DNA of 64,000 nucleotides from Raillietiella orientalis. Taxonomy: Eukaryota. Positions 19,507 to 64,000 of the stretch are shown one piece after another. The notes below the pieces were generated by a model that worked only from the letters and a program-made list of their open reading frames with translations, was not told the DNA's origin and made no database searches. How positions within the stretch are numbered: the first letter of the stretch is position 1; each line of letters begins with the position of its first letter. A program made the translations under genes and the position numbers. The stretch spans positions 3,534,001 to 3,598,000 of the forward strand of contig JAYWIR010000014.1 in the NCBI GenBank assembly GCA_036172245.1, given 5' to 3'.

Positions 19507-19885
19507 ACCGGCAAACTCGTGCAGCAGGAGAACCTGGATCTTGGATCGCTTGCAGTCCAACGAACTTCAACGCCTGGAGGCAGGAAGTGTTATTGTCCTG
19601 GGCAAGGCATCGGGAAGTGCCGCTAATCGAACTTCGTTGGGTGAACCTTTCCCCTTATCTTCCATTGAAGGATTTGATGCAAGTACAGGGCAAGTGAACC
19701 AGCCTGGCCACCACACCCCTTGCTGCAGCGCTGTCTGCTCTAAGGGCAAGTGATGATAGTTGCCTACCGGCAAGGTGGGAGGTCGCCTGCACTATCGCAG
19801 GTGCAACCCGACCCATGGGCGGCTGGAGGACTAGCGAGCTGGCAGACGCCGCCACACCTCGCATCATCCCGAAGGGACTCCTTCG

Positions 19886-33000: not shown

Positions 33001-36000
33001 AAGCTTAAAGTCTTGGGAACTCTTCTAGTGCTAAGCAATGGCAACAAGAGGGGGGGGGGGGAACTTAATATTGGCATAGTTCTGTGGAAAATAAAAACCT
33101 TCAAAAATGTTAGACTTTCAAATTCTTCAAACAAGGAGTAAATCTTAATGTTTTTTCAAGAAGTCCATTAGACTAGTATATAAGGATGACTTGTTTTAAC
33201 TGCACACTTCAATGCATCACAAAAGTTGATTTTCCAAAAACCACGAAACGCAGGGCCAAAAGTTTCGATCCAATGACTCGCTTTTCAAAATACTAATTAC
33301 CCATATTCTCAGTGAACCACAGTCTCCTAAATAAAAATGGGATATATCTTATATGATTTCTATTTCAGCTAATGTGTTTCTGCAAAGTCACTACGCGAGC
33401 TCTGGACATAAATTATTTTGAATTAATGGCGATCTTCTCGTTTTTAAAACATTCACATGCTGCATTACAATGCACATATTTTTCCATGATGCTTGCGAAT
33501 TCTAATGCCATGTCCGATATGAACATCGGTGGTTATGTGATTTGTACTGGGACATTCTAGAAAAACATTATTTACAACCTCATATGCTGCTTTGGCATTG
33601 CATGTTATACCAAAACTGCACTAGTTTTTTTACTGCCTGCTTACTTATTATATCTGGAAAATTGTTTGATATTGTTCTGATACAATGTCGTGATTCCTCT
33701 GATATCTATGTTTCACCACATGTCATAAAATGGTCTAGTTTTATTCACAATTCAAAATTATGACGAAAAATACTTTTCAAACTTCTACTTTCAGATTTTT
33801 TTTAATGCTAGTTTCAACCATTCTGTGATGAAACAAACTGAACAGGTTGTTTTGAATGAAGGATGTATATTCATACTTATTCAAGCAGGCAAACAAGGAT
33901 TTGAATTTAAAAAAAAATCGAGGAATAAAAAGTATGTTGTAAAATATGGCAAGTATAAATGACAAATCATATAAGCTCATTGAAAAAGCATCAAATAATC
34001 TAATTCTTGAGATGTATGATTTTGTTCTTAATCTGAAGCTTCTAATATACCACAAGCTTTGTTCTAAAACAGCTAGTCAAAAAAAAGTACACTCTTCCAC
34101 ATATTTTCCTTAGTTTGCTAATTGATAAAACTATTCGACTGTTCGATTCGTGAATCATTTGGACTTACAATATCAATCTTACATGTGAGACAAAGTGAAC
34201 ACATTTGCTGGATGCATATGCAACTTGGACATACGTTAAAAGAAATGATCTAAGATTGCCCTTCTATGAATAGTAGTTCAAATCATAGATCAACAGGAAA
34301 AACTTATGCTTTTTTTGAAAAAATGATATGATGTAAAATCTATGCCTGATTTCCAAATAATCATTTAAAAATAAAATGCACAGATATCCAATTCAAAGTA
34401 ATCTCTACACAAGAAAGCGATCTAATTAGACTCTCTTAAATGATCAAATTAATAAACATTAATTCATCCAAACATACCAAATTACAAACAGGAATATGAG
34501 AATATGACCAGAAAAAGAATGAATGCAAGAAAACTATAATATAAAATCAGTGGAAATCATAAAATCCCTGGAGGCAGTTTGTGATGGATTGGACAAAAAG
34601 CTAGATGAAGGCCAAAGAAATAAAACAAAGAGAATTCTCTATAAAAGATTTTTCAGCTCACTATATATACAGTGATGTAAGTGAAAACTATTAAAAACAA
34701 ATATGAATGATGTTTGCAAAATAACACTTCTAGTGAGATCAAAGTAAAAGAAAAAGTCTGAAATAGTACACATTCAAGAAAAGTTTTATTCAGTAAAACA
34801 TGAAAAATCAATCTTTCATGATCTTTATACAATTTCAACATCTTATAAGAATTTAGAACAGTGGCGACATGAAAAATGACTTCATTCTATTGCTCGTATT
34901 AAAGATTATATCAAAACCAATAAACATTTATGTGTGCATCCAAAGGAAACATGATGCAGTTCTGCAAATAAAAACATTCATTCATCACTTATTCATTATC
35001 ATAATTGTTTAAGAAATGAAAATAATACAAACAGACTTAATTTTGCAAGTAATAAAACCCTTGATTTGGCAATTTGTGGATTTTTGTTTGATCTGTATCA
35101 ACATTTGCATCTTGAAGGAAACCAGGAAATGTAATAAAATGATATTGCAAAATACTGTGAAAACTTACCCACAATGTCTCCCCATCACCTCCAAAATAAA
35201 AGTGCGCTGATGTGAATATGCTGTATACACAATAGCATCAATTGCTTCCATTATTCTGTGAAGAGCTGAATCGGTGCCAATAGTCATATCAGTTCCACAA
35301 AAATCATTATCAATTGATCCAACTAAGCCGGCCAAGTTAAGTGTTTTGTTTTTTTCAAATTCATCACATGTTATTTCGCCTATGAATATGAAAGAAAATA
35401 ATTACCAGCTGTATTTAAACGATATATAATTCAGAAGCAATAGTAAACATTAAAATATGTGTACATGTATACAAATTATTTTTTGATATTCAATGTTCAT
35501 AATCCAACAGGAAATATTAAATTTTGCAATCCTTAATAATGCTATCTGTTTGCAGTTTCCTCTGAATTACTGTGTTCTAAAATTGGAAGCAACTCAGGCC
35601 ACCTTCCAAGATTTTTACTGAAATCAAATGATCATTTACAATTCCATCAAATACATTATTTTTTGGGGAGTTTTCATTTTTGCATTGTTCCCTAAATAAA
35701 AATGTCAGAGTCTGGAAAACTAAAAATTGATACCTAGAATACATTTCAAATCTCATTCCTGTTTATACCTAATGAGCAAATCACTTTAAAACTACACATA
35801 TTGATATGCATTGTACAAACAATACAAATGGATCTTTGATCTTAAATGAAAAACAAAAGCAGTACTACCATTCAATTAATCCTATTGTGGAATACAAAAA
35901 TTATGCACAAATTGATCACAAATTTGGTTTTTTTTTCTTTTTAACTCTACCATGGCACAATATCTATGTATGTCAATGAATCAATATTTCTATATTTTGA

Positions 36001-39000
36001 ACATTTAGCTTGAACAATCATACAAATTATGATTTAAATCCAATCACAATAAACTTGGCCATTTTAATGTTGCATACATAGAAATAGTGTGTCATTATTT
36101 TATGGTCAAATTTATTGCCACAATAGCTGAAAAATGTTAGAAATTATTCACTCAATCAACTATTTCAGCCCCACTTTCAAACTTCAACATAAAATGCACT
36201 AATTTTAGTAACTTCATTTCATACATCATGCATTGTATGGAAAATACATAAGAGACACAAACACATTTTAAAGACAAATTACTTTTAATTTTCGGGTTTT
36301 AAGAGACTGTATATTTCTCATGAACACTGGTGGTCCAACTGCATTTCTCTAACTTCTAAATTCCTATGTAAAAAACTCATACATGTGAATAAATGTAAAC
36401 AACATCAGACATTACAAATTATGGTCACATTGCTGTTCCATCTCATAAGAAGCATAACGACATTTATGCTGATAAGACATATGAGAAAGTCATAAAATTG
36501 AAAAATCTTTATGACCAATGAGAGAGAAATCAGTAATTACACCTTTTAATTAAGCTATGCTTTAGCTTGCCAAGTTGAAAAATCGAAAGAACATTAAAAT
36601 CTCACATATTTGCTAATGTAGTACAAGGAATGAAGACTAAACTAAGTATATGAAAAATATGAATAATCCAAAATATGTTTCAGCCTTCATTTTCACACCT
36701 ATTTTGCTCATCAAAAATGTAATACCCCAGTTACATGCAACTCTTGCATTTTAGTTTTGAACAAAGCAGGTGTGAAAATGAAAACTGAAACATATTTTGC
36801 ATTATTTGTGGACATCACATACACAATGTATAAACACATGCATCAAAAATCACACATGTGATTTACAATATCAACAGTGTACCTTTATCAAATAATTCTT
36901 GGATGAGACTAGGCCACTCCTTTCTAAATGTATTGGCTCCAGTTAAGGAACCATCACCACCAATGCATATTAAATTTGTTATACCATTTTTGACTAGATT
37001 GTATGTTGCTTTCAATCTACCTGTCCTTTCACGAAATTCAGAACAACGAGCAGAGCCAATCACTGTTCCACCCTGAAAAACAATTTCAAAAACTAGTCAT
37101 AATTTAGATAAGAAACGTATCTCAATTGAACATTTATAAAGTATGAACAGGATTCCCTCCCCCCCCCCTACAAGCAATAGTCAAATGTCCTATAGATAGA
37201 CTGTTGAAAGTAGTTTATGATGACATTGTGCACTGCTGAATATTGGCAAGCATCAGTCTAAAACTGTCACTAATATGTACAAGAACAAATGAGGAGAATT
37301 TTGAAATTACTTTAAAGTGCCCACCACAAAAAATGTAGAAGTCAAAAGGTGTGCACAACACAGTTTAACATAAAATAAATGCAAATACGGAAAATGTTGC
37401 CCTCATTACGACATCATTAGATATTCATGAGGATTATGAAATATTCTCTCACTTTAAATTTTTATTTAAACAGAAAACGGGTACACAGTAAAGAGAGGCA
37501 AAATCATTAAAATTTGCGATAAACAAGCCCCTTTGATCACAATGTAGAAGAAACAAGAATAACTATGCCTCCACATCTTATGTATACCCACATAATTTCC
37601 AAACTGGCTGCTTAATTTGTTTGGAACCACTCTGTTGGCTTAATAATTCAGTGAATTATTACAAAAGCACTGTGCATGTACAAGACAGGAGGTGTATCAA
37701 ATCCATCCTTTCATACTATGACAAAAAAAAAAAAAAAAAACAGATGCATATATCTGGATTGAGAACACTATGCCAGAATGTTGTAAAAATAAAACTCAAT
37801 TTCAAAGCACTATTAGTCATTTCATAACTGGAAAACTTCAGTCTTACAAGGAATGGAATAGGGAGATGGCTTAGAAAGGCAATTATAATGCATGGGTATT
37901 CTGTTGACAAAAAGATATATCTCTATATGATTTTGAGTGCAATGAGACCATGATTTTCTCAAACAAATGCATTAATACTTAGAAAGGCAAACATGACTGC
38001 TGATTATAAAACAAATCCCAACAGTAAAAATTGCCTTGAAGCTATTCTGCTGTCTTTTGCAGTTTAATTATGATTTGCAGCACTCATAAACAGCATGGAT
38101 TTAAAACTGAACCAGAAGTATTATAATGATACAAGCATGTATCATCATGAATAATAAATAGATGCATTGTTTTTGCAATTTCATATCATTGAGGTTTGTT
38201 TTACGTTGATAATCCTTGGGTATTACCAAGAATGCATTTATTTTTGTTTAAAGAAATGTTTACCATCTAGGATAGCACCTTCCATTCACAGGCATAAAAT
38301 ATTACAAAAAATACATTGTATTGCAGCATATTTGAAAGCAGAATTGGATTTAGTGGCAAATATTTGAATCAACACAATTCTATACTATTGAAATGTTAAG
38401 TACTAAAAAGAGTCTGACCATTAAAATATACTGAAAACTGAATGATATATTCCTATATCTAAATCTTGCAGGACCTGAGAGAAAAAGAAATGTGTCCTTG
38501 CAATTTTGAACGAATGGCTCAGCATAATGTGCATTACAAACTTCAAAAGAACACATTAGATGTACAAACCTTATGAAGAATTCCTGATACAGAAGACCAA
38601 GTTGCTTCTACTATGTTCTCACCACCATCAATCAATCCTTGATAGCCTTCTTTAATGAGGAAGACCTTTGCACCAAGATAAATTCCCATCCTCACCACAG
38701 CTCTTACAGCAGCATTCATTCCTATACAATTTTGGGTTTCAAAATGAGATTACATATACAATTCAAAAATCAAGTATTCATCAGATCGAAATTTCATTTT
38801 TCCTTAAATTGAGAATTAATTTAAATAGTGTTTTGGACCTTGAGAATCACCACCACTGGTATAGACTGCTATGCATTTTCCTTCATGGGCACCTTTTTCA
38901 ATGAATTTGCCTTCTTTGGACAAAACACCCCAAGATCCAACTGCTTCTGGAGGATACTGCAGAAATGCATTACTGCTGGACACTGACAATGCTCTAGCCA

Positions 39001-39001
39001 T
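30018..39001 (-). CDS. PFK: ATP-dependent 6-phosphofructokinase (eukaryotic duplicated type), multi-exon
   Basis: ATG at 39001. Motifs across exons: [144 protein letters not shown]. Stop at 30018-30020. Confidence 0.97.
36662..36806. repeat. ~145-bp imperfect palindrome (MITE-like) in a PFK intron
   Basis: Arm 36662-36710 matches the reverse complement of 36758-36806 at 43/49 positions. Pairing continues imperfectly inward (AAAATGTAA/TTGCATTTT). Confidence 0.85.
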
Positions 39002-42000
39002 TGCCCAACTGATTTCTCAACTTATGCTTTGTACCTGGAATCGAAATTTTTTTTAGCCATATTTCATGCAAAAAAGAAGAAAATCATTTTACAGTGATTG
39101 CACGAACGTACTGATACCACATCTTTTTAAGTACACATCAGTCAAACTCGAAAACTTTGGGAATACATGTTCATAACAACGCTATTCTTTTAACGGTACT
39201 GACAAACGATACTGGGAATGAGACTGAACACACAAGCTGGAGGCTTCCGGGACAACAATGTGACAACAATCAATAAATAATGTGAAAGGCATGCAAAGGG
39301 TTCAGATTGAGCACATTGTTATACTTCTCAACAAACTCGGAGATGAGCACCGAATTTTCGGTCATTTCTCAAGGAGAATGAATGACATTACTTCCACCGC
39401 AAGGGAAAAGATTTGGTTCGGCACTGTACCGTACTGTTGGGTTTCACTTTTGTACCTTCCCGAACTGTTTACCTGATAAGGGCATCTAGAAATACCCACA
39501 CACGCGATGATGATCACAAGTAGGATTTGAGATAAACATACCTAAAAGTACTGTGCACACAATCATCCGATTGGGGCAACGGAGTTCCGACATCGTAAAA
39601 GGGCTTTAACCACAAAACACAACACTTACACGATCGTACCAACACTGCAGTATTCGTGTGTTTCATAAGTGCACTACAAAACACAAACAGCATTTCAACG
39701 AAAACACACTTCCGACTCGTCATTTTTTTATCAGCTACTGAATCGTGAGCGACAATTTCTTATCGTGACGATCAAAAAATTTGGATCGATAAAATTTGTA
39801 CAATGTTTCGTGTGAAGTCCCAAAGTATGGATGTCACACACACTTGTGGTACATACGAACTTGCAATCCGAAAATTGCTAACTTGAGATTTCATCAAGAG
39901 AAAATTTTTTTTTTTCGTTTTTTTCTCTCCATTTGTAGCACCATGACACAGTCAAAGCACGGCATAGACGCTTATTTTTTTTTTTTTTTTACAAATCCTT
40001 ATCTTTTTATCAGCTTCAGCTGTGTGACAATATAAACAAGATACAAACCAAGGATCTCCTATAAATCCCGTTTGCAAACACGATTTTATAAGGTGCTTTT
40101 GCTTTTCTAACGCCTCTTTTAGAAAGGCCTGTTATGCGCCAGAGATGAAATTAAATACCTAAATTCAATACTCAAGCAAAGATCCTAAAACCACATTTTG
40201 ACCCACTGTACTTTCCGTGGTACATAATAGCAAAATATCGTTTGGATAGATAACAGATTGTACATTCTCCCCAAGACGCTTTGTCTGAAGGGTGAGAAAG
40301 TATTACTTTTTCAGGTAATCAAAATCAAAATGCATTTTTCATTTCAGACAATGAGAACACTGATTTAAGCTCAGACTGAAAGAATAGTATAAGTAGCAGA
40401 GTTGTGCACACGATGGAGTTGCTTAATGAGAAATCTTATGCTGGAGTTGAGACTTTTTTTTCACATTAACTCTTTTAACATACAAATGTTCGTACAGAAT
40501 CTGAGTATGCCTATAACTTGATTAAAATGCAAAACCTTGCGCCACCTCTATGTATCAATTTGTGCTTGTTTTTCTCTTTGGCTAGCTATAATTACAGACT
40601 TACGTACTTAGCACGTTTGTTAATATTGATCTCGTATACAGTTTTGTTTGGGATTTCGAAATTATCTTCATAACTTTACAGGCGAACGCATCCGGAGAGG
40701 AAAGGTGCATGTTAAACTTCATTGCATTCGAGACATCTATCAATTTGATATCGCTGTCTGCATGAAATGATGCAACTTCTCGTTACTGACTTTCAAATCA
40801 GTAATGACTTTCAAGTATGGAGATCTCAATGTCGTAACTTGTTTGTTTTGTACCACATATAAGATGGGAGGGAAACATTTGGTTTTCGAGAGTTCGCTCT
40901 TTTTTGTTTTCGAGTTCGTTCTTATGGGTAGCATTCCTTCTCTTCCTAGATGCCCATTATTTCGGAAGCTTTAACTTGTACAAACAATGAATACTCAAGA
41001 TATTCGGATATTATTTTCTTTCGATGTTCTTTCCTGATCGTGGCAAGAGCAGAATCCTTGAGAACTGCGTGTATCACACTGATCATGCATGTAGCATCGT
41101 AACTTCCCATCCAGTGTGGAGTCGTACAGTTGCCAAGTGCAGTTCTCCCACACGAGGTGAGACGCAGAAGACGTTGACTGCGTGTATGAAGAACTTGTAC
41201 GATGCTGGGATCACACGATTGTAAATAAAGAGAAATGCAAAGGATCTCTGCTACGGGGCAATCCAGTGGATGGATTGTACATTGGCGTAATATTTTTTAG
41301 GTGGCATTTCGGTACGATTTTCGGCAGCTTGAAGAGTTTACTTTGTTGATACAAAATGACTTGGTATTTGACACAGTGGAAATTTATTGCGCATTAACCA
41401 TCAGGAATTGATATATAAAGTCTTTTGTCTAAAATTTCGGATGCATTTCAGAGAATTTGGCGCTTAATATTCAGAAAAGTTTTTTGCATTGTGTCGGAAA
41501 ATTTGAATCTGTTAGGACTGCTGGTGTTCTTTTGGTTGTACGTTACTAAAGTAATTACAGTCTTTGCTGCTCACTGCATCTATCAAGTATTAATCCGTAC
41601 ACTGATTTACTTCGGAAGGTACTGATTCCGTACTCTTGTTTCGTTCTCTTTAACATGCTATATTTAGGGAAACAAATTCGAATGCTCTGTTCGCGGAGAT
41701 TATTTGCAAAAGATAGTTTGCTGAAGGGCATTCCACAGTTGATAGTCCTTATACACTAAAATCTTTTGGGTGGACCACACAATCACCCTTCGCATCTCGA
41801 ACACAAGATGCAGTAGTTGTACTTGAACAGTTTTTCTGCATTCACAAGTATTTTGTATTCACTGATGGAGCTGAGCCCAGAGATTGTGTTCATGTGCGAA
41901 AGTAGCTCTTCCTTAAACTGAATTTAGGAAATGAGAAAAAAGTGATGCTTTAAATAAAATTTCCTACTGATGCTTCAACTTTCGCAACAGACCGAAACAA

Positions 42001-45000
42001 GTATGCAAATAAACAAAAGACGAAACAGTCATTTTAATTTTAAAGAAACACTCCCAGCAGTAATAATAATAGTAATACGAATAACAATGGATTCAAGGGA
42101 ACGATATTACAAATGATAATGGCAAGTTCAGTAAGCACAAATGCAAATTTTTATTGTGTTGGAGGAAACATTTTACAAAACGGTTGCTCTCTTGGCATTC
42201 ATGAGAGCTACATAAAGTCATTCGAAAAGTATGAGCTTCAGAATTGGGTGGCTCCTATAATCTTATTTAGTGTTCACTTCTTTACCGTATACTGTGGCTC
42301 ATTAGAGTAATGGCCTAAATAAAAAGAGCATTTGGCTTGCTCTGTAAAACCAAATCACATGAAGTGATACAGAGAAAGTGCGTATATTTTAGGCCGAATA
42401 TTCTTGAGGTACGGAAGACTCCAATCATACCAATCACGGACAAGATGAAAGAGCATATGAAAGTCAACCATCCAAAATAAACAAAAAAGCGTTTTTTTTT
42501 TTTAATTAAAGGGAAGTTATGGTACCGAAGTAAACAGTCCTATGTTTTTGATCATCCTTAGAGTATTGGCTCATGTACAAAACACGGGGACTGTAAAAAT
42601 CGGGCCAAGGAAGGCATCGAACAAAGCAGCAGCATTGATTTCACTTTGATCAGATTATTTTCAAACAATCTGAAAACTTCAAAGGAAGCAAAGGTGTGTG
42701 CAATTAGGAGCACTAACGTATTGAGCAGGCGCTCTATTAGAATTAGTAGCTGGCTATATAAAATGGAAAAAAAAATCCAATAAAAAAATAAGCTTGATGC
42801 AGTTTCGAGTCGTTGAAACATCAGATCAATAAGAGCTTGCTTACCAATCTTTCCAAGTCTCTGCATCCGTGCTGATGGAAAAAAAAAGAACCCAAGGATG
42901 CAAATAAAACTGAAATCTCATTTAGAGAAGGTTTTTACAGATCACTCTTGAAGATTATGTGTATGAGAACTAATGGAGATTCAGATTTTTGTGAGATGTA
43001 AAGGGTCATGTGACAATTAAATAGTTACAATTCTTGGGAATAGCAATAACATTTCTGAATGTTTCTCAGGCTTCATCATTCTTGGGATGATAACTTAAGA
43101 ACCGTAATTTCCTGGAGTTTTGTCAACAATTCGGACTGAAGTTATTTGAGTTTAAGCATCAATTTGGCAGTGAGATGAAACCGAAGATGCTGAAGGAATT
43201 TCAAGACTTTCAAATTCGAGTAACGATTCTACCTGAGATAGAATTATTATTCTATGACTTTGAAAAACGATTCACTCTGAGCAGAAGAAAATGAGATTCA
43301 TTCTTCCATTAGCTCGAAAGTGTGCCTTTGTTTCAGTGTTCATCCCAGTAATTTGGGGCACAGAAGTATTAATACGATCTGCCAGTGTGCCCCAAATGAG
43401 AATGGAAATGTAGCAAGCTAATCATTGTTCTCTCTCACGGAATCGTGGAAAAGGCCAAAATGATAGCGTCTTTGGAAAGCAAATAAAACGACCTGAGATG
43501 ATGATGTGAATGAGATGCTGGGATGGAAGGTCTGTGAAAACAGTAGATCGCGTAGTAGAGAAAAGGTTTGAATGAAATCTCAGAATTCAGCACCATTGGA
43601 AATCAATGAAAGTAAATCACTCCCTTTGAGCTTCTTGCAAAATTTTAGTCAAATTACACTGAAATCTTTTGTTTTGTTTTAGTAGATGCTCTTCCGAAAA
43701 TTTCCAACGAATGACGTGAAAAAAACCCATTGAATCCCCATGTGAGTTCTCCTGCTCCCATTACTGACTTTGGTACAAACCATGCTCGCTGCAGTGCATA
43801 AACGATCATCTGCTAGCAGCACTGAACAAGGGAAAAATCAAACAAAGGTCGAGGTCAGGAAACGCTCGGGGACAATTCCGCAGGCATTTCCGAAGGACCG
43901 ATCGCATTCGGTGAATTAACTAAAATTCGGTGTCACATCCATGTCAGATATGAAAAATTAGAAGCAAAAAGAAATGTAGAAGCCAATAATAGTTTGAACA
44001 AAATAATGAGTCACTCTTTCGGATACAAAAAAAAGAGCAAAAAAGGAACCAGTACAATGGACATGATTGATGCACCGTTTGTTTTCGTCAAGTTGGACAA
44101 AAAAGTCAGACGGTTCAAAAACCACATTACGTAGGGAGAGAGATTCCTCTAAAAAGAGTTGCACTGTTACCTACAAGGCTCTTGCATAATTTGGATTTTC
44201 CCTGAAAAGAGATCAAGAACAGATGACTGAAGAAAGGAGGGAGGGGAGGCGGGGAATCAAAAATCCGTAAATACAGCGTGGAAAGATGGTTGCCCTTTTA
44301 CTGCATCGATCCATTCATCACTTTACTGCTTTCATGCAAAGTCCCATTTTAGTATACTTACATTTTGGTATACTTTTGTCGAACACAAGCAAGCTGAAGT
44401 TTTTTTCCCTCGCTGGCTGGTTTCGATTCAGGAGGGTCTCACTGGGGGAATTGCAAGCCAGAGAGCCTGCTGTACTCTTTCTTATTCATAGAATCGATAA
44501 ACTCAGTGCGCTTTTGCAATCCAATGCTAACTAAAAAGGAGATCAAGAGAAAAATAAATTGGACATGGCCACTGGATCAGATATGGTACACAAAAGGATC
44601 AGCTAAAAGCTGTCCCTAAAATATACACGAGCTAAGTGGTGAAGATTTCAGCACTATGTTAAGGCACAGAAAACAAGAGACACGGAGCACGATAGATGCT
44701 GCGCGTAACTCAAAATGGCACACAGTAAAAACAAATAGGGAGAGACCCGTCATCAACATATCCAGAGAATGGAATCTAAGAAAAATATAATATCGCTTGC
44801 TCTTTGCTCTTCTCTTGAGTATCCGTTTGGGTTGTAAAGTAGGTGCCAGCAATAAGAATGATTATTCGGTGCTCATCTTCGAAGAATGCAAGACTCTTGA
44901 GTGAAGCCAGGGGGAGAAAGTTCCTTGTGTTTCCAGCAAAAGATAAAAAGCCTTAGGTGGCACAAAGCGTTTCTAAATTTCAGCTGTTGTACACGTGTCT

Positions 45001-46879
45001 GCAGAATGTGGATGCGTGTGTGAGGGAACAGGACGTAGAAAAGCGAGGAGGTATTATTGCATGTCGATAAATTCGAAGGCCAATTTCCGTGCATGCAGTT
45101 ACATTCGTCATTTTGACACTAAAGCATCCTTCAAGTGAAACTTTTCCTTGGGGCAGCCAGGTGCTCAGGTGTTTTGCTTAGTAATGAAGCAAAGGTTTGT
45201 TCGTTTTTCTTTCAACACATCCAATAAATGGACATCTTTGCAATGGCTGCTATTTGGGATTGGGGTTCTTGGCGCAAAGTTTCCAGGGATTCTGCATCCC
45301 CTATCTCGTGCAGGAAAACTCTTCCTTTGTTCCAAACAACTTTCCTGACAAGTCACGAAGACGAACCTTTAAGTTGCTTGCATCACAAGACTTGATCACC
45401 AATGAGCTCTCGCGACAGAGCGCAAGACTTGAGTTCTTGGAAGTCTGACGATCCCGTTCCACTTATGCTCAAAGAGCTATGTGCTGGTCATCCTCCAGTA
45501 GGGTTTGCTAGATGGAGACCACTCCACCGCCACCACGGATATAAATAATCCAGAATTTATGTGATAGCTTTCTGGTGAATCCAGGAGTTCTAGGCAACCC
45601 TCCAATAGTTCCAAATATATAGAGGATTCGCAGCAAGTCCATCCGAATTTAGAAGCGATACCCGCATCGGAGCTTCAAGCAAGCTCAGCGAATGTGTTCC
45701 GATGGTTGTTCCTACGTCAAGCATTCATACAGTAAGCTTAGCAGTGGTATTATCTCAAGAAATCATAAACCCTGAGAATATATGAAATGGCTTTCCGAAG
45801 TTGTTGAAGATACAGGATTCTGGAAGGGCGAAAGAACGCCACAAGGAAGTGAGCCATCACAACGATGCCCGTTTCTAAAGTATGTGCCCTCAGTTTCTCA
45901 CGGACATATTCTGGTTTCTCGGTCGTTTCTAAAGGAACGCGTTCCGGAGATGAAATGTATGTACGGACGAGGTCAACTGTTACAAAAAGCATATAACAAA
46001 AAGGTAGAATGCAGGGGGAAAAAAAAAAAAACATGGATCGCTCTCGTAGTTTGCACGTTTTTCGTCGTGCCATTTCTTCGCCGAGGAACAAAGCGGTTTC
46101 AAGAATATTTTCTCTCCCTTTTGTTACTGAAGATCACCTCTTGATTTAAGATAACAGCAAATATCGTGCTGTTATCTTCAATCAAACAGACATCTTATTT
46201 CACCTTCCGCACAAAAGAGACATTATGTTCTGCGACCACAAACAGTCAGACATCATCGCTTGTTTCCAGATACCTGTGGGAATTATGGTCCTCATGGTGT
46301 TTGGAAGATAGAAACATCGTCCAGGTTACCAGTCTGGATTCCTGGGAACCAAAATATGATGAAAACAGAACTAGATGTTGCAGCTGGTGAGGGGGGGAGA
46401 CTGAAGCTGTTGGGTGGAACAACGAACGCAGATTTCACGAAGAACGGACCTTTGATTGGGCTTTGCAATGTCTTCCATTGTGTCAATTCATATCCTAGTA
46501 ATCGTTGCTAAGTGAGTCCGCTAGAAGTGAGAGCGGGTTTTGGACTCGGTTTTACTCCCGAATTCCAGGAAGAGAGACATTGGTTTCAGGCAGGTTTCAC
46601 ACTCGCATGGCGCAACAGCAGTTGGTGAGGAAGTGGCCCGTCCAAAGGTACTTGCACCGTGCCCGTCACACACCCCCGGGGTCGATGTGAGGGTGTGTGA
46701 CGGCTCGGTGTTTGACTTTCCGAAGTAGCATAGGCTAAGGAACAATCCCTGAATGCCGTCGGGGTGTGGAGAACATCAGGGAGGGATGGAGTACGGGAAG
46801 AATGGATGTTTCGGTGTAGTAAGCGTTCCTCCGCAGACGATTCGATCCCGCCTTCCGCACGTTAGGTTCCAGCCCGTTG

Positions 46880-47272
46880 GTGCACATGACTCGTCCTTCT
46901 CGTCCGTTCTGCCGCTGACTTTCCGGTTCACTACCATTCTCTCAGGACAGCTCATCTCATCAGCGCCTCCGTTCTGTCGAGGCAGTAGCAGCCGTACACG
47001 CTCTTGCAAAGCCTGATCCCAAGGGGGGGAGGAGAAGAAGGGGAGATGGAGACCACGCAGTCCCCAAGTTAGCGGAATCCCGATTTCTTAACTGGGAGTG
47101 TAGCCAGTGACTGTGAGTCAGGCGAAGACAAGGCAACGCGTCCCGAGCAACAGATCGCAGTTTTTTGCCCATCGCGGATCGCCTCAAGGCTGTGGCTATG
47201 GGCCCTCTGGAGGATCAAAACTCACCGAGCCCTGCTGTGGACAAGGATTTCAGCGGAGCAGGAGAGACTGGT
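46880..47272 (+). mobile_element. Degenerate L1/Tx1-like ORF2 C-terminal remnant
   Basis: VLPLTFRFTTILSGQLISSAPPFCRG / VHALAK resembles the knuckle region of the 19886-20414 copy (LVSGGVVSPNCKRCG..HLLLDC). It is followed by LWALWRIKTHRAL (cf. KAHREL). GC-rich. Confidence 0.4.
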
Positions 47273-47903
47273 GGCAGAATATTTATCACAGTACTTTTAT
47301 AAAAATGAACTCTTCTCAGATGCTAGTCTTGATGTAATAAGGGAATGTCAGTTAAAACCTTATTTTGTGATAGATGTACAGAATGGAGAGGAAAGAAGAC
47401 GCACAAATGGGAGTTTGAGTAATCTCAACGAAGCTGTAGTAACGGCCGGAATAACGAAATCCATAATAGAGAATAAACTGATAAACAGACTTTCAGTTGG
47501 TATTATTACACCATATGCAAAACAAAAATTGATCATTCAAAAGACGTTGGCAGAATTGATCAAAAACGAACCTGAGGCGGAAGTGAATACTGTTGATGGA
47601 TTTCAAGGAAGAGAAAAGGATATTATTATTTTATCTTGTGTGCGAGCAAATAATAAACAGTCTATTGGTTTTCTAATTCACCCGCAAAGGTTAAATGTTG
47701 CACTGACTCGTGCAAGATACAGCCTCATCATTATTGGACATCTTTCCTCTTTAAAAATACATCCTCATTGGAGGGAATTAATCTTAGAAGCACACAAGCG
47801 GCGTGTCGTGCTAGAAACTGATAATAGCAATTTGAAGGATATTGTTGGTCTCGCCGTCTCCAGCCCACCAGCACAGACGTCGCTCTGGAGTCCCATCACA
47901 TAG
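47271..47903 (+). pseudogene. Intronless fragment of a senataxin/Sen1-like SF1 helicase (C-terminal AAA_12/RecA2 domain)
   Basis: Upf1-like family motifs: SLSNLNEA, SVGIITPYAKQK, EVNTVDGFQGREKDIIILSCVRAN..SIGFL..PQRLNVALTRARYSLIIIGH...HPHW. It begins just after the expected QYRMHP motif. No Walker A/B half is seen in the window. Confidence 0.8.
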
Positions 47904-49989
47904 AATCCTCCTCTTTCCTCATGGTGCAGGTTTCAGCTCAAGATGAATGCCGTGAGACAGAGAGAATTCTCATATCCACAGGGAGACAGAGGCACTCCGT
48001 TCACATGGAAATCAAGCCTTCGTCTCGTGAAAGTTGGCGCTGGGTGCGAGGAGCATCGTGGGTCACCATCTGAGATGGGAATTGTTCCCGAAACGATGAG
48101 TAGGGAGAGGCAGGTCGGCGCGCCCGGAACCCAATGCAGGATGCTCTCCAACTTTAGCAAAAGTCACGGGAGCCGTGGAAACTGTCCCCACAAAGTCTCG
48201 CTCCAGAATACGAAGGACGAGGACGCTTAGTGCCGGATACAGTTCGCAAGAAAAATCTGAGACCGGAAGACGCCTCCCGCAGTCTGTCCCCACCGGAAGT
48301 CGCACGCGGGCAACCATCGTTCCTGCACTGAATTTCTCTCTACCGAGCAGCAGCATCTGGAGCTATAAGGGCGGGGTTCGGCGACGTGCGCACGTGCTGC
48401 TGCCCCTATTCAGCATTTCCTAACCCCTTCTTGAGTGCGCGCGTCCTTGCTGAGCACAGAGAGCGGGCAGCGCCGGCCTCCCAGGCGGCGAAAGATCGTC
48501 TGACCCTTCTGACCGTTCGGCTTGCACCGGGAAGATCCTCGAGTAGAAGTTTCGCCCGCCAGCCCTCAGGGAAGGCGCGCAGCCCTCACGAAGGCCGCGG
48601 CTGCAGACCGTCCGGATGTGGCTGCAGCCGCGCAGAGAGCAGAAGGCAGACATCCCCTTCTCCCTCTGGGGAGAGGGGATGTCTCCCTGTTCCCGCCTTT
48701 GTTTCGGGAGTGCGCTGTGGAAGAGTGTTCCCGGAGACCAAGCAATCCACGTGGTGTTTTTCTCCGGTCATGCATCATGCTCGGTGGCGCTTCAAGTTTC
48801 GGAGGATATTCGTTCTTTTTGGAGCTATCCCAGAACAAAAGCACTCTGCTGAACTGAATGACGGACTCTGCTTAGGATTCATCATGGAAAGCCATCTATT
48901 TCTTGCATTTACTTCAGGTGCCTTTACTCCCCCCCCTTCCCCACGCACAGCCTGGTTCCCTGGGCAACGGTTTTATGAAAAACATTTGCAGACCCGATGA
49001 AAGGGGGAGCATCCCAATGATCCAGGGACTTGAGCGGTGGAGCCTTCTGGCTTCATCCCCCACCCTCATGTCCGGCGCCAATCCCGGAGAGAGTCGAGGG
49101 GATGCTGCTCTCTTTGAGGGGGCTCTTGTTGCTTTGAGGCTCTTGTTGAACCTTACAGCTGGACCACCATCCTTCGGAGCGCATCTTTGCAAGCTCCTTC
49201 CCCGAAAAGGCCTCTGGGGTGCATCGCTGACGATCGCTCGATGACCTAGGCTTCCTGAGAGAAACTGACATCGCTGAGCTCTATGACCTGACAAAAAGGG
49301 CACGCCATTTCGAAAATCCCAACGAGTGTGTATCTCGCCCCGAGCTGCCTCTCTTCCGCAATTTGCGCCTGTGGCTCTGTGCTGGCGAGAACTCTGCCCC
49401 TTTCTCTCGTAGGTCGACACAGGCACTTGTACACCAGGAAGCCTACCGGCGCCTTCCGTGTCGCGACAGCCACAATGCTTAGCGTTCTCCTAGGCACACT
49501 GTCGATGCGAGCGGGTCCCCAAGTTCGAAAACGGAAGATCTCCTCTCCTGAGCGGGGTTCTTCCTGTGAGCACCTGCACTGTAGGCTCAGTTGTCATGTC
49601 GACCGAGGGAGCATAGAGAATCGCCGTTGAAGAGGCTTGGCAAACTCCTTACCAGACCTAGTGCTGCTCATGTAGCTGACTTCTGCTGTGCATCGCTAAG
49701 AGGTGCTGCAAAAAAAAAAAAAGAAAAGAAAGAAAGAATGAAGGAAAAATTCCGCTAAGCATTTAGTGGAATCCCGCTCACCCTTCGATATTCAAATGCG
49801 TGGATCAAGAACCACCCTCAATCTCCCCATGGTTGATTTGACCTCTGACACGGGGAATCCCGAAGTTCCTGCCACCCCAGAGGGCGTCTCAATGGAGACT
49901 TCACGATCTCCGTTGTTATGGTGACGCGTATCAAGAACTCTGTTGCTGCTGGATCGCGAAATCCATCAGCAACCTGTTGCTCGACCATC

Positions 49990-50600
49990 GCTGGATGAGC
50001 TGACCAGGAAAGCATGATGAAACGCATTTCCCTGCATACTGCACTCGTGGATGACCACCTCCGACTGAGCTAGCTTACACCAAGTACGGAGATGGGAAAT
50101 AAGGTGGGCAGTTTGAGTGAGCGTAAAGACGGTGAAAGCATCTCAAGGAAGCCCACGTGCTCTGTCCCACGGTCCGGAGCACCAACCCATTGTCACGACT
50201 CAGCGACATTACATAGCGCTTCATAGGGCGTGTGAACTGCTCCCGTGTCTGCTGTCTCTCCTTTGGACCAGTGACATGGAGCACTGTGGACGCGCCTTCA
50301 GCTCCTGACATCATTGGCCTTCTTGTCCAGAACGTCACAAGTTCTGTCATCAACATCACTTTCCAAAAGTTGATGATAGAAGGCAGCAGACACACATCTG
50401 CTTTTCCTGGCACAGGAATGCCAGAGGATTTACGAGTGCATCAATCCGGTGGTTGGTGCACTAGGGTACTGGGATCGAAAGAACCAAGAGATCATCAAAA
50501 ACTGCGGTGTCTCTGATCACCGAGGTCAGTCACAACTCTGTACCTATTGCAATCAAGCGTCCGGGAGGTTCCCTCTCCACTCCAGAGTCTCTGTCAGGAT
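49990..50600 (+). mobile_element. Third, heavily degenerate NeSL/Utopia-type remnant (post-RT linker, CCHC knuckle, RLE)
   Basis: In order across frames: DQESMMKRISLH (cf. DQGK..EC.S.H), YTKYGDGK (cf. YTRFADWR), RR*KHLKEAHVL / SHGPEH...QRHYIALHR (knuckle + RHN), APDII...VINITF (PD..D motif), VVGALGYWDRKNQEII. Confidence 0.7.
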
Positions 50601-53600
50601 GAAAATCTCATCCTGATGTCCAATTTGATGATTGCTTTCTACTAAGAGCAGCAAAAGTTCCCCATGAAGGCAGTATTTTGGTCGATAACCACAATTTACC
50701 AGATTAATGTGTTCCGGCAATCCTTAGGTCGATGTCATAAACATGCTCGTCGACTTACAATTTCTGGAGGGCACTTCAGCAATAGTGTAATGTATTCATT
50801 GCTCAGGGCGTATTCTGTCTCCCCAATTCACACTCATTTACCATGCATTAGGAAAATTTGTGATGAATTGCAACAACTTCTCGTTTCCCTGCACACTGAT
50901 GGAATCCACATAGTCTTTCTTCTATTCATTGTTCTTTATAGATAAATGATTCTCAGACGAAAAGTCGTCAATTACTGAAGAATTCTAAAAGGATGCTTGG
51001 TATAGAACTTTTAGGATATGATTTTACAATCGCAACGCGTTTGATGACTCATGCAGGAAAGAGCAAGAAATTACAGGTGGGCTCGAGGGTATTTTTCCTA
51101 AGAAAGAAAGCGTCAAAAATCGAGCAATTTCTTTTCCCAACATTTTTCGTGCCCAAAGCAGAAGCGAGAAATTTGCCTCAGGAGGGAATATGGGATTGCA
51201 GAGTTACCCTTATAGCTTCAAAGGGTGGGAATTTGCTGCGAAAGCGATCGAACTCATTAAAAAAACGTGGGAAGCAATAACGACGCACAGCAATGGTTAA
51301 TTTTGAGAAAATTCATGTACTGATGTCCTAGGATTTTCCGTGAACGCCCATGTGAAAGGATAAGAGCAAAAACGTATCTCGAACCATATTCAAAGATGAC
51401 ACAGCATGGATGCAGATGCAGTATTCCTGTCACCAGCATTTTTGATCTGATTCAAATCGAATACGCAATGAGAACATTGGAAGATCTAGATGCAATGACT
51501 ACTCAGAAAATACAAACGGTTTTTCCCTTTTCATAATATACAAACATAGAATTTTGAAGCAGAGAAATTTACCGAAAAGGATTTGTATAAAGTCAGTGCT
51601 TATTTTGGCAATTAGGCAACGAATGAAAGCGGAACTCAAAAAAAATTGAGCCATGGCAGTTCCAAGACAAGAGAATCAGTGGCCCAAAATATTCTCAGCC
51701 ATTCTCTGTTCCAGTGAGAAACTGAAATACAAAGTAAAAGCCTTTTCTCTTTCTCTCTCTCTTCCAAGAGAACCTGTGGATTTCGAGAAAAACGAAGACA
51801 GATGCTTATAAATAACGAACATTATAAGTCCATAATCCACTTGGAAATTGGAAGCTTTCCAGCATATTTCCATGGAGGCACATATGGAAAGACTCGAGAA
51901 TCAATGTGACTCCGTTGCATCCCACAATCTGCATCGAAACCCTATGATTCCAGGGCTGTATTTTGTTTTTTTCCTTCCTGTAGTTTTCGAATGAACACTG
52001 AAACACGGTTTCTATTGGACATTTTTTTGATATGCTAATAGAAATTAGCTGCTCGCTATTTTTGGTATTTGAGCTTTCAATGTGAAATATCGAGATGCCC
52101 CAAATCAGATACGGATGGCAAGTGTAACATACATTACTAAATTTACACTTTTCAACAGGTACATTGAACTTAATAATGTGGTTTTGAAGTTTTGGCTTAG
52201 TTCAACATGGCAGAGATGTAATGGATCCGTGCAATCAATCTGAAATTGAGGAATTTAAGGTGTAATCTAAGTAAGATTCATCTGTGGATTTCAAAAATAA
52301 CAACTAAAACATATGATACTAGGTTTACAAGTGATAAGTTATTGTTTACGTATCTAATGTAAACCAAAATGTGCTGTGAAGTTTTATTTTACAGATGAAT
52401 TCATTTTTATCACGACGGGTAGCGATCGCCTTCAATTCACTGGACTCATGTTTTGCATCGTTTTAACTTTATGTATCATATTTTTATTCGCTATCTCGAT
52501 TACTCCTTATCCTCAGGGACTGCACCACATCAAATTTTTGTTGTGTTTTTGGAGAGCGAATCTGTTTTCCGGTTAGAGAACTCGAACCATTGCATACTAG
52601 AGAGGACACTACAAGACACTGAACAACCGTGCGAGAGTGTGAGACAGTGAGCAAGATTTTCACAATCACATATGTTGACTTCCGTGTTGCAACAAATGTG
52701 ACTGTGCTTCAACTCTTCCGCTGCAAAATCGTTAAAAAATTTGCTTTAGACGTAATCCAGCTATCTGTGTTGAGGTAGTACCGAAATCTCTGTTATTCCA
52801 TCGCAGTGAATACTGAACCTTCACCATGACCACGGCGTACACATTTAAAGCCAGTCCAAACACAAAGTAATTAGAGAAATCGGCTTGGTCTTTCACAGCA
52901 TTTGTTTTGGACAGAATTTCAGTGCACTGCGGCTTGACCTGGAGCGCGAACGCGCAGGGTTGCCTCCTTGTACATCTATGAAGAGGGCAACTTTTAAACT
53001 TGCTCACATAAAGAGTATCAAATTAGTTAATCTGTCTGGAGAAAATTTATCAGTGGAAGCACTCGAACGCAGTGCAACTAAATTATAATTGCTTTCAAAA
53101 GGGTTTTTGTCTGTTGCCCGCTCACTCAAACCGTTGAACTCTTTGTGAATGAATTTTCAAACTGTTTGCAGCACAGTTTGTTTCGAATCGAAGGAGACGG
53201 CATTGAAGCCGTGCCTTCCGATAGCGCGAAGATTTGTTTCAATAAACCTTAGCTGGGCAACATTCTGGATACAAGAATGGTAGGTGAAAGAACCGTAGGG
53301 AACCATCTTCTGGTTAAACCAACACTTGGTGAATGAAATGCAAAACTTTAGAATTAGAATTCACCAGTCTCTTTTCGCTTTTTGCTGTTGTTTCTGTAAA
53401 GGTTTATTACAATTTACAGTAAAGCTCGCCGTTAATAAACAAATGACTTTTTCTTTCAAAGCTCCACACTTTTTATGTTCAGTGCTATGGCGAAATCAGA
53501 GTTAACATTTGAAAATCTGAAAATTCCGAGTACATCAGTAATTTGAAAGCAACAGCTGAAGAGTTCAAATTGGGCAACTGCTCTCACAGCTGTCAATGAT

Positions 53601-58318: not shown

Positions 58319-61300
58319 ATGGAAGATTCATTTGTGGTGTATCGCAAGTCAAGAAAACCTTGCCAGATACTTTCATCTGATTCTGAAGAAGACATAATCG
58401 ATTCTTCCGGAAGTATTTCCAATTCGATTTATGTACAGGAGACTAGTCAAGATACTTCAAGTGAGATTATAGAATTATTTCATGAGAGTCCCCTTGAAGG
58501 TTGGATAATTACTTGTACTTTTTTCCTAAATGTTCTGTATCTCTCATAGTAAATGCAGATAACTCCACATGTTCTAAAACAGCTGCGGAAAATTCAGTTT
58601 TGGACCATAATTCAGAAATTCGGAATGTTGTAAAAAGTCTGGAACAGTCAAGTTTAGATGATGATGCCACCAAAGAAGCCAAGGAAGACATTATTGACTC
58701 TTCTTTTAATGGTGACATCACCATCACTCAGTTTGTTGCTGGCAAACAAGACAAGCATGCAAAGATTCATGACCACACCACTGTGGATCTTCAACCTTCA
58801 ACTGCAAGCACCAGCATACCACCAGGGCCGAAGTTCAAGAATGGTTCTTTACAAAATGATGGGCAACAAGTGACTGCTGAACTTCAAGAAAGTATGAAGT
58901 TGACGTTGGATAATGCTGCAAATAGAGCACCTGATGACTACAGCAAGGAGTCACAAGTAAAGCATTCTCAAGTAATGCCACAGAATGTATCTGTTTTATG
59001 TAATTATTAGGGTAAAATAAATCCATCCAAGACAGTAGTGCATAGAAATACCAGCACAGTACAGCAAAATAAATATAATGAAAGGACATTACCAACCATA
59101 GAATCTCAAATGTGTTGTGCTGCAGATGCTAAAGGTGTGTTGAACCAGAATTGGCAGCATCATTTACTGCTGATGGTTTTGTTTTTCTTCTGTAGTAGGA
59201 TCTTATACAGCAATTGTACATAAAGAAGAGTCAGTCAGCACATATCACAAGCAAGATTTGCTGGAACTCTATGCCACTCTTGATAGATTGAAAGTAGGTG
59301 GGAATGTATAGTATAGTTGTTGTAAATGGTTGCAGAAAGCAGATCAAGAACATACTGTAAGCAATTTATGTGATGGTGGCGTGAAGCTAAAGAAACACAT
59401 TCACCATGTGAAACAATGTATTAAGCAGCAAGAATCATTAGACCATTATAATAGTGGATCCTCTGTGAGATTAGATGCATCTTTGTATTGTGATCAGCAA
59501 GTAAACAAGCAACCACCCAGTAGGATGCCATCAGAATCAAAAAAGGTATCCAGTAGCTATTCTCTACTTTTTTCAAGATTGCATCATGTAGATCAATGGA
59601 AACTATCAGGTCCCACTGCATAATAAAGTCTCTTCTATAAATGAAAGAAGGCCAAAAGCCAAAAGTCATGAATCAGATGAATCACAAATCTATCACTTGA
59701 AAAGCTCTGGGCAAAGAGATCCAGAAGTGGCCTTTATTACTAGAAAGGCTTTGAAAGCTATATTTTCATCTCTTAGAACTGCCCCCGAAAATAGGGAAGA
59801 AGCAAAGCAACCAGAATTACTCTGCACTCCTCTTATGACTCATCAGCGTCAGGGCTTAGCTTGGATGCTATGGAGAGAACAGCAGCACCCTTCAGGAGGT
59901 ATTTTAGGTAAGGGACCTTGTTTTGTAGTTGACTTTTTTTTAAAGCCATGTAAGCTGATGACATGGGATTAGGTAAAACTCTTTCCATCATCTCTTTATT
60001 AGTACAACAGAGTACATGCCAGTCACAGGCTAGTCATTCTCGTAAGTTAATAAGTTAAGAAACTATAGGAGATTTATGGTAGACAAGTTCTATGGAAAAA
60101 CATTAATTGTTTGTCCTGCCTCTCTGCTCAGCCATTGGGAATCTGAGGTTGAGAAACATGTTGAAGGAGGTCACATGAGTGTGCTTATATATCATGGTGC
60201 CAAAAAAGAAAAACGACCTCGGAAGTAAGAGAAGAATTTAGGAATCAGAAGCTATTGTGCATTTCAGACTGGCAGCTTTTAGTCTAGTTGTGACAACTTA
60301 CCAGACATTAGCACGAGAAGCTCAGTCATTCTTAAAGGATGATAAATTTCCAGAAGATGCTCAGTTAAAGAGAGAACATGTGGGTTTGTTTGCACTTGAG
60401 TGGGATCGTATCATTCTGGATGAGGCTCATAATATTCGAAATCCCAATACACAAATATCTCGTGCTTCTTGTCTTGTGGCTGCCAAAAGCCGTTGGGCCC
60501 TAACTGGAACACCTCTGCATAACCGTGAATTAGACATATATTCACTCTTACGGTTTCTGAGGTGTACTCCTCTTGATGAGCTTCGAATTTGGAAACGATT
60601 TATTGACAGCAATTCAGCAACAGGTGCAAAGAGACTTAATATCCTTCTGAACCTTATAATGCTTCGTCGTACTAAATATCAGTTGGATCCCATCACAGGC
60701 AAGCCCATCATCATTTTGCCCTCTCGTACAGAGTACTCTCATCAGATTACATTGTGTGAGCAAGAACAGCACTTATATGACGAAGTTTTTGCATTTTCAC
60801 GGTAAAAAGTGTTGATTAAGGATTGGCATTAATTTGGACCTTAGGAACCAAGTTCTCAAATATGTGAACCATCAGACACATAGTAGTTATCGAAGATTGT
60901 TTGGTGGTAAATCCACTTACCATGACAATAATGGCAGGGTATCTTCAACAATGGTCTTTGTGCTTTTGTTGCGCTTACGTCAATTGTGTTGTCATCCAGC
61001 ACTTATACATAGCATGTTGGATAAAGATGAACCGAATACTGAGGAAGAAGGTTCTGGAACATCTTGTGATGAAGAGGAATTGGAACTCAGTCATTGTTTA
61101 GAAAATCTAGATCTGGGAAAGCAAAATATGCAGACTCCTCTTTCAAACAACCTTTTACACATTAGCAATCCTATTTTTCAGCCTGGGCATGTCAGCTCAA
61201 AGGTAGGATTTTTGATAATGGAAGAAACTTGCTTATAGGGTGTAGTTAAAAATGATCCTAGGATTTGTTAAACATGTTTATTTTAATACAAGAGATGAGA

Positions 61301-61803
61301 AGTGCTTGGTTGTTTCTCAGTGGACGTCCATGTTAGCCATTGTTGAGTTTCATCTGCAAAAAGAAGGCATCCAAGTTTGTTTCATCACTGGAAATGTCAC
61401 TATTTCCAAACGTGGTGCTATTGTTGATAACTTCAATAAATCTGGAGCAAGTCCTCGGGTGATGCTTGTATCACTTACTGCAGGTGGAGTAGGCCTCAAT
61501 CTCATTGGAGCCAACCATATCTTTCTTGTGGATTGCCACTGGAATCCACAAATGGAAGCACAAGCTGCAGATCGGATTCATCGTGTAGGTCAATTGAGGC
61601 CAGTATCCATTCATAAGTAAGATGAAGATTTATATTTCCATTAAGTGCTGTGTTGTAGGTTTGTCTGTACTGAAACAGTTGAACAAAGAATTATAGAATT
61701 GCAGCAAAAGAAACTTCAAATTGCAGGAAATTTACTGGAAGGAAAAAAGAACAAGAATCACCTCAGCTTGCAAGATCTGCAGCACTTATTTGAGATAGAT
61801 TGA
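58319..61803 (+). CDS. TTF2: SNF2-family helicase, transcription termination factor 2 / lodestar-like, multi-exon
   Basis: ATG 58319 and a low-complexity N-terminus, then LMTHQRQGLAWMLWREQQHPSGGIL|ADDMGLGKT, TLIVCPASLLSHW, VVTTY, WDRIILDEAHNIRN, RWALTGTPLHN, LLRLRQLCCHPAL, KCLVVSQWTSML, SLTAGGVGLNLIGANH, HWNPQMEAQAADRIHRVGQ, LSLQDLQHLF. No RING finger between the lobes. Stop at 61801-61803. Confidence 0.92.
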
Positions 61804-63179: not shown

Positions 63180-63455
63180 CTCCGAAGGGGAACCCTGAAG
63201 GGAATCTCCTTCCTCATTCTCTCCGGAGGGACACCCCCCTAACGGGGGGTGGTCCTCTCCATTTCAACTTCTCCGAAGGGAACCCGGAAAGGATCCGCTC
63301 CTGTTCACTCCTCTGAAGAGAACCCCGAAGGGACGCTTCCGAAACTCAGAAGAGGCGCTGCAGCTTCCCGCAAGGAATCGCTCTCGCTTGGTTCCTTGTG
63401 CACTCTGTGAAGAGGCGATGACTCGGAGGGCCCCCGCAACAGGGGGGGTCCGCTC
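63180..63455 (+). repeat. Degenerate GC-rich ~40-50 bp tandem repeat
   Basis: Units beginning CTC(C/T)G(A/G)AG at 63180, 63221, 63271 and 63311, with a related unit at 63422. Each has an internal CCC-N-GGG-type mini-stem. Confidence 0.7.
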
Positions 63456-63925: not shown

Positions 63926-64000
63926 GCGGGAAAGAATGAGTTGAGAGCATACTTGGGGTGGGATGACTTCGCAAGGTCACAGCAAGTTGAAGTCTTGGAG

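Follow-up and report, generated by a model that had tools for sequence, protein, structure and literature searches.

How does one half of a helicase, with a clean reading frame and without the rest of its gene, come to lie between two stretches of GC-rich DNA? The question is raised by a 64,000 nt stretch of the Raillietiella orientalis assembly GCA_036172245.1 (contig JAYWIR010000014.1, positions 3,534,001 to 3,598,000, forward strand), referred to below as the window, with positions counted from its first letter. Near its 47 kb mark is an AT-rich, stop-free block that encodes only the second RecA-like domain (RecA2, or 2A) of an Upf1-like/senataxin-like (Sen1/SETX) helicase of superfamily 1B (SF1B). 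A first-pass annotation, made from the sequence, had recognized this domain and placed it within the decayed remains of a long interspersed nuclear element (LINE). The identification of the helicase is borne out by the analysis described here, while that of its surroundings is not. The reading favored here, to which we give about an even chance, is that part of a host helicase gene was captured recently, has no function and lies within inserted GC-rich DNA. The features on which the argument rests are collected in Table 1.

The open frame runs from 47073, as previously noted, to 47903 on the forward strand (276 aa from stop to stop, ending in TAG), and its translation contains no methionine anywhere. 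The block makes up 575 bp of it. Pfam AAA_12 matches the translated frame at E = 2.2e-43 (residues 67-223, profile positions 30-193 of 195), and the only other Pfam match in the frame, to Viral_helicase1, is sub-threshold. The best matches by sequence among solved structures are UPF1 (6e-28), yeast Sen1 (2.2e-24), fungal SETX, Dna2 and IGHMBP2, and in proteins annotated as senataxin it is the C-terminal RecA2 half that aligns with the block, at 37-47% identity. Neither motif V (TVDGFQGREKD) nor motif VI (RLNVALTRAR) is damaged. Judged by name, the top hits suggest a senataxin-type rather than a UPF1-type affinity; a quick tree (58 rows) leaves the block unplaced between the two, with a value of 28 in the Shimodaira-Hasegawa-like approximate likelihood ratio test (SH-aLRT). 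The 191 codons of the block are free of stops, for which P is about 1.6e-7 at the composition of the block, and the other two frames have 24 and 13 stops.

An AlphaFold2 model of the frame, built on a 56-sequence alignment, has predicted local distance difference test (pLDDT) values of 85-96 for most of the block but below 50 for the flank-encoded residues 1-63, and the last 18 residues are also modeled without confidence. Foldseek paired the model with the UPF1, Sen1 and SETX cores at a probability of 1.00, and among the top matches the TM-scores were 0.58-0.66 when normalized to the query (TMq) and 0.21-0.28 when normalized to the target (TMt). The latter values indicate that the model spans about a quarter of the helicase core.

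Pairwise HMMER alignments, together with the consensus of the preceding region in 132 homologues, place the start of true homology at V67 (position 47271). This residue aligns with the I that follows motif IV in the consensus '...QYRMHPEICEFPS', and the consensus of the preceding region reads '...SPVLLLSTQYRMHPEICEFPSKYFYEG'. Across the left border the frame has AEQERL/VAEYLSQYFY where the homologue consensus has TQYRMHPE/ICEFPSKYFY, and in this comparison motif IV (QYRMHP), expected at the start of RecA2, is not present. Since homology begins only at V67, motif IV, motifs I-III and the entire RecA1 half are absent. Some BLAST and HMMER alignments (with P0009, P0003, P0134, P0137 and P0142) begin as early as residue 38-44 or so, within the GC-rich part that precedes the block, but there are no real matches there and a dedicated profile scored -3.5 bits. 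On the C-terminal side, the closest proteins can be aligned up to a point 3-12 residues short of their own ends (P0001 at 1982/1994; P0009 at 1604/1607). Judged from these alignments, the piece spans the coding sequence from just after motif IV to about its natural end, but includes neither the original stop codon nor a 3' untranslated region (UTR).

A terminal exon of an ordinary helicase gene would be one explanation of such a piece, and the first-pass annotation had itself pointed to upstream SETX exons splicing into the block as the finding that would count against capture. No such exons were found within the window by tblastn, by Pfam or with a profile of the upstream region. When ten full-length senataxin-like proteins were compared by tblastn with the whole 64 kb, all ten matched only 47148-47852, and elsewhere in the window no match was better than E = 0.27 (listed to E = 10; noise). 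Pfam scans of read-through translations (stops as X) gave no family in the three forward frames of 33001-45002, and in the six frames of 45001-51602 only AAA_12 and the sub-threshold Viral_helicase1, both in the frame of the open reading frame (ORF). RecA1 with Walker A/B (Pfam AAA_11), which is needed for ATPase activity and translocation, is absent from the ORF and from all of these frames, and SEN1_N is likewise absent from the scanned frames. The upstream-region profile, made from the 150 residues that precede the block in the 132 homologues and run on six frames of 40000-47306, scored no better on the forward strand than the -3.5 bits given above, which is below the minus-strand control (0.1 bits). 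These sequence comparisons support the view that the block is an isolated, truncated helicase coding piece and not the terminal exon of a recognizable helicase gene. Nor does it stand as a gene by itself: a start codon is missing, as is the ATPase half (RecA1, Walker A/B, motifs I-IV), and there is no poly(A) signal close by, neither AATAAA nor ATTAAA occurring within 47801-50000. To this extent the earlier idea of a captured host fragment holds up: the piece is isolated and truncated, and the 47 kb upstream of it hold no helicase exon.

The composition of the locus changes abruptly at both ends of the block, as had been seen before. In 200 bp windows the GC content is 33-37.5% within the block, 55-58% in the left flank and 55-65% in the right flank. 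The AT-rich block had been taken as the odd part of this arrangement, but comparison with the host reverses that view. The window as a whole has 36.9% GC, with most 1 kb bins at 27-44% and no Ns, and is interrupted by three islands rich in GC (19-21 kb, about 46.5-50.6 kb and 63-64 kb). In seven host exon ORFs the GC content is 0.31-0.41 and the third-position value (GC3) 0.24-0.34. The block, at 0.354 overall and 0.45, 0.32 and 0.29 over the three codon positions (GC3 0.289), falls within both ranges, whereas the flanks measured in the same way have 0.51-0.59. Since the GC and GC3 of the block match those of host exons in a window of 36.9% GC, the block is host-like and the flanks are the compositional anomaly. 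The ratio of observed to expected CpG (CpG o/e) departs from this pattern: it is 0.79 for the block, with 14 CpG where 17.8 are expected, compared with 0.24-0.59 in the seven host exon ORFs.

A host-like block between foreign-looking flanks could also be what survives, in place, of a host helicase gene: its 3' part would have been left behind after GC-rich elements inserted on both sides and the remainder was recently deleted or rearranged away. The other two islands, at 19-21 kb and 63-64 kb, behave like insertions, one of them with a faint LINE-tail signature (zf-RVT), and this would fit such a history as well. It would, however, require two insertions that bracket the piece exactly, in addition to a deletion, all recent enough to have spared 191 codons. 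Past the left edge of the island, as in the rest of the window, there is no remnant of a helicase, and the upstream 47 kb is occupied by phosphofructokinase (minus strand), NMD3 and RGS genes. We regard survival in place as improbable. Capture is preferred because a single GC-rich insertion that carries the piece needs fewer events than two insertions and a deletion.

The lack of introns in the block had been read as a sign of mRNA origin. Downstream is a TTF2/lodestar-type SNF2 gene (59300-61800, forward strand; SNF2-rel_dom E = 3.7e-31, Helicase_C E = 8.3e-21), in which gaps of about 20-55 nt with GT...AG ends separate the aligned coding blocks. Since the coding sequence of this native gene is uninterrupted over at least 534 nt (60269-60802), the absence of introns from a block of 575 bp is uninformative on this point.

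The flanks had been described as LINE-like, decayed and full of frameshifts, but not one of the 26 ORFs of 81 aa or more that lie in them, from 45.7 to 51.3 kb, has a transposable element (TE) domain, the only matches being to unrelated families at E = 0.009-0.35. No reverse transcriptase (RT), endonuclease (EN), integrase, transposase or gag was detected in six read-through frames of 45001-51602. The 66 aa upstream part of the frame, formerly interpreted as a Tx1/L1-like tail, has no Pfam match, no match in the Protein Data Bank (PDB) at E <= 10, no Atlas match and no BLASTP similarity to the zf-RVT-like ORF at 19909-20238 in the same window. When the flanks were compared with the rest of the window there was no blastn match and a single tblastx match (E = 0.008). 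An Rfam scan of the window placed no family in the flanks, its only match being to U2 small nuclear RNA (snRNA). Tandem, direct and inverted repeats around the island do not rise above chance. The sole inverted pair near the island edge has 17 nt arms (88%; 46481-46497 and 51012-51028); as the terminal repeats of a Pack-MULE-type transduplicate it was rejected, because a pair of this size is estimated to occur about by chance in 8 kb, and its right arm lies some 450 bp outside the island. The right flank also contains a 20 bp unit repeated 2.2 times (48556-48599) and a short palindrome at 48644-48688 (15 nt arms, 93% complementary, with a 15 nt spacer).

The first-pass annotation had further raised, as the more speculative option, a retroelement family that carries a helicase module as part of its own coding capacity, here of the senataxin RecA2 type. 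The frame is open from the left flank through the helicase and out again, and the block has the same orientation as an A-rich tract downstream, both of which would be expected of such an element. Among flank codon positions, 15% are preceded by at least 66 stop-free codons and 59% by at least 18, these being the lengths of the two flank-encoded parts, so that the run from flank into helicase, while open as claimed, is at chance level on both sides. The upstream part is most likely non-coding sequence that is open by accident; it is predicted to be structureless and has no homologues that could be found. None of the frames of 45001-51602 encodes an RT, EN or gag-like domain, the window has no second copy, and the ATPase half is missing. 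Moreover, a module with host-exon composition, 20 GC points from that of the element, cannot have stayed long within it. A family of this kind is, of all the explanations, the one we find hardest to credit.

The TGGT at both junctions and the TTTCAG upstream are where they had been reported. Taken as a junction signal, TGGT is at chance level, being one of five 4-mers common to two windows of about 36 bp, with about four expected by estimate. The TTTCAG, 18 nt before the start of homology, is preceded by GC-rich sequence, unlike the T/A-rich runs found at the ends of the TTF2 introns, which also finish in AG.

The helicase sequence itself is clean, as had been stated; the contrast formerly drawn with a frameshifted TE presupposes a coding frame there, and none is recognizable in the flanks. 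An alignment of 157 homologues has 45 columns with conservation of 80% or more, and of these the block keeps 43 (family median 42, 5th percentile 38), and both of the lost columns fall within its first five residues. Its branch in the quick tree (0.78) is within the range of senataxin-like tips (0.59-0.95). By a rough estimate, about one fifth of neutral changes would be disabling; on that basis a 575 bp frame free of constraint should be broken once neutral divergence reaches a few per cent, so the block must be either young or constrained.

Constraint would be expected if the RecA2 piece had been taken into use as the last coding exon of a chimeric gene, spliced at the TTTCAG (47253/47254) to non-helicase exons that supply the start. 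The conserved columns, retained as in working helicases, the uninflated branch length and the confidently predicted fold (pLDDT as above) would all suit such an exon, as would an acceptor-like AG 18 nt upstream with a compatible open frame. Its putative product would be a module without ATPase activity that binds nucleic acids or partner proteins. The segment that precedes the piece in homologues, including motif IV, is missing, so that the profile match starts only at position 30 of 195; no methionine, recognizable upstream exon or poly(A) signal was found; and the GC-rich sequence before the acceptor is without the T/A-rich run of the TTF2 intron ends. All of the conservation evidence is equally expected of a young, dead copy. 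A selected exon is, on balance, unlikely.

Downstream of the block, the A-rich tract is possibly the tail of a retroposon. It lies in the right flank and is followed, 17 nt further on, by the right copy of a candidate 14 bp direct repeat whose left copy is at 47069-47082. The two copies are identical at 13 of 14 positions, a weak match. They may represent target-site duplications of a 2.7 kb retroposed unit, which at present is a lead only. In the unit between them (47083-49762), the helicase piece would be preceded by 190 bp of GC-rich DNA and followed by another 1.9 kb of it, with the A-rich tract last. An RNA-mediated route is consistent with the orientation of the tract, which is the same as the helicase sense, and with the 13/14 repeat that brackets this unit. 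A separate A13 run at 46016-46032 lies 470 bp to the left of the island, after a 1.1 kb stretch of 43-47% GC, and may be the tail of another retroposed insert.

A parent gene or a close relative of the block was sought among public sequences. The best identity to a public protein over the block is about 47% (among longer proteins), falling to 44% among proteins of similar length; in a representative protein library identities reach 53-58%, on short matched stretches only. Since 51% is the best that the clearly native exon of the neighboring TTF2 gene attains, the lack of a close protein relative is uninformative about the parent. The top match in the representative library (P0121, 953 aa, E = 2.1e-44) aligns to the query in two separate stretches, and may have two AAA_12 copies or one split copy. 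Metagenome contigs containing an exact 24-mer from motif V were found at 11 loci, none of them a close relative: the main alignments have 26-50% of their amino acids identical, similarity in the DNA does not extend outside 47580-47741, and there is no match to the flanks. By their sequences these are distant homologues that have the 24-mer in common through codon coincidence.

Among public sequencing runs only one contains any of a 5 kb stretch of this locus, with 5% of the sampled words, and no RNA run is listed. Such sparse coverage, together with two sharp composition borders within 600 bp, would be compatible with an artefact in which the abrupt switches are chimeric joins made by the assembler. 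The sequence has no sign of a join and no Ns, and assemblers rarely produce an island of 575 bp with unique sequence on both sides, which makes this explanation very unlikely.

Taken together, we infer that the piece was captured rather than left in place, and recently. Under the favored reading of a captured host fragment, a GC-rich non-coding island of about 4 kb (about 46.5-50.6 kb), probably repeat-derived, would have been inserted into AT-rich host DNA, as at two other sites in the window. The coding sequence of a host SF1B helicase would have supplied its 3' half, in a truncated copy made recently from the gene or its transcript and joined to this GC-rich DNA, either by template switching of a reverse transcriptase (RNA route) or by templated insertion during break repair (DNA route). 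The clean frame would then reflect youth and not use. Several points weigh against this. The flanks are not recognizable as TE by their sequence: they contain no TE protein, no terminal repeats above chance and no second copy in the window. The candidate target-site repeat is weak (E = 0.23) and is displaced by 17 nt from the A-rich tract. The CpG o/e of the block is higher than that of the host exons measured. The retention of conserved columns would suit a functional exon equally well, so that youth and purifying selection are indistinguishable. Lastly, the host lineage is poorly covered by public protein sets, the TTF2 exon finding 51% identity and the block about 47% at best.

Table 1. Positions in the window of the helicase block, its surroundings and neighboring genes.
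Feature	Position	Strand	Basis or remarks
AT-rich coding block, RecA2 (2A) half of SF1B Upf1-like/senataxin-like helicase, motifs V and VI	47271..47845	+	Pfam, PDB, tblastn, fold model, composition
GC-rich upstream part of open frame, 66 codons, no Met	47073..47270	+	GC 0.566, GC3 0.606; no similarity found
GC-rich downstream part of frame, 18 codons to TAG stop (47901-47903)	47846..47903	+	GC 0.648
Left GC-rich flank, no recognizable coding content	46500..47270	.	56% GC, CpG o/e 0.83; composition, domain scans
Right GC-rich flank, no recognizable coding content	47846..50560	.	51-59% GC; composition, domain scans
TGGT, left junction microhomology	47269..47272	+	chance level
TGGT, right junction microhomology	47846..47849	+	chance level
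TTTCAG, possible splice acceptor, 18 nt upstream of homology start	47248..47253	+	sequence only
A-rich tract, A13 run then GAAA-type units, same orientation as helicase frame	49709..49745	+	sequence
Candidate 14 bp direct repeat, left copy	47069..47082	+	blastn-short, E 0.23
Candidate 14 bp direct repeat, right copy, 17 nt after A-rich tract	49763..49776	+	blastn-short, E 0.23
RGS-domain ORF	5276-5959	+	E 8e-32
NMD3 exon	26107-26397	+	E 1.3e-23
Phosphofructokinase gene	30875-32648	-	host gene

The genes in the upstream 47 kb (Table 1) are accompanied by the U2 snRNA match at 7078-7206 (forward strand), which scores 47.7 bits against an Rfam gathering threshold of 46 and covers 129 nt of a 192-position model; it may be a degenerate or divergent copy. 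The CpG o/e of the RGS, NMD3 and phosphofructokinase genes is low, at 0.24-0.45, compared with 0.79 in the helicase block. The island at 19000-21000 (50-52% GC) is without similarity to that around the block, and contains an ORF (19909-20238, forward strand) that matches zf-RVT at E = 8.6e-4, or 0.011 in the read-through frame, both below the Pfam cut-off; the signal may be the faint trace of a LINE-type zinc-knuckle tail. The island at 63000-64000 (57.7% GC) continues past the end of the window, and its six read-through frames gave no Pfam family except DUF4741 at E = 0.093.

If the captured-fragment reading is correct, the locus is an everyday product of genome turnover, a common kind of feature, and its main importance is as a caveat for annotation, which would wrongly list a helicase gene here. 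The locus also carries the lesson that, where the genome is AT-rich, it is the flanks whose composition is odd. The fragment would become important only if it were transcribed and conserved, or multi-copy with fixed junctions, which would point to a half-helicase of the R-loop and termination machinery recruited by, or against, a mobile element. There is a slim chance that the RecA2 half is not dead, either as a module of a GC-rich retroelement family or as an exon without ATPase that is joined by splicing to upstream exons derived from the element. In that event its product could attach to RNA, to DNA or to helicase partners, and in this way disturb, or draw on, the host machinery for R-loops and transcription termination.

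Among known systems, the block resembles the RecA2 half of senataxin/Sen1 and UPF1 (SF1B; Pfam AAA_11 and AAA_12) in sequence, motifs V and VI and predicted fold. It differs from these proteins in having no RecA1, Walker A/B, motifs III-IV, accessory 1B/1C parts, or SEN1_N or CH domain. Like a processed pseudogene, it is an intron-free coding fragment away from a recognizable parent gene, but unlike one it has no 3' UTR or poly(A) directly after the coding sequence, and both of its ends are cut off within that sequence or close to it; unrelated GC-rich sequence begins at 47846 and the nearest A-rich tract is 1.86 kb away. In the bipartite and tripartite chimeras attributed to LINE template switching, as presented by Gogvadze et al. 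2007 (PMC2104539), the components are an identified retrotransposon and copies of cellular RNAs, and a fungal tripartite example is flanked by identical 14 bp direct repeats. The present locus is similar in that differing sequences are fused directly in one orientation, with an A-rich tract downstream and a possible 14 bp flanking repeat. It is dissimilar in that neither flank is identifiable as LINE, the repeat is 13/14 (E = 0.23) and displaced from the tail, and the source gene is unseen. Fragments of host genes within TE consensus sequences are reported in the relevant passages of Abrusan et al. 2013 (PMC3597677), and here too a piece of a host protein-coding gene lies inside apparent repeat DNA, in this case without a known family or consensus. 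The first-pass annotation had also pointed to captured viral-type SF1 helicases in some insect non-LTR elements. A senataxin-type module in a non-LTR element is not described in the titles, abstract openings and PMC3597677 passages covered. On these comparisons, the structure is closest to pieces of genes that were captured in repeat DNA, or to the chimeras that arise by LINE template switching.

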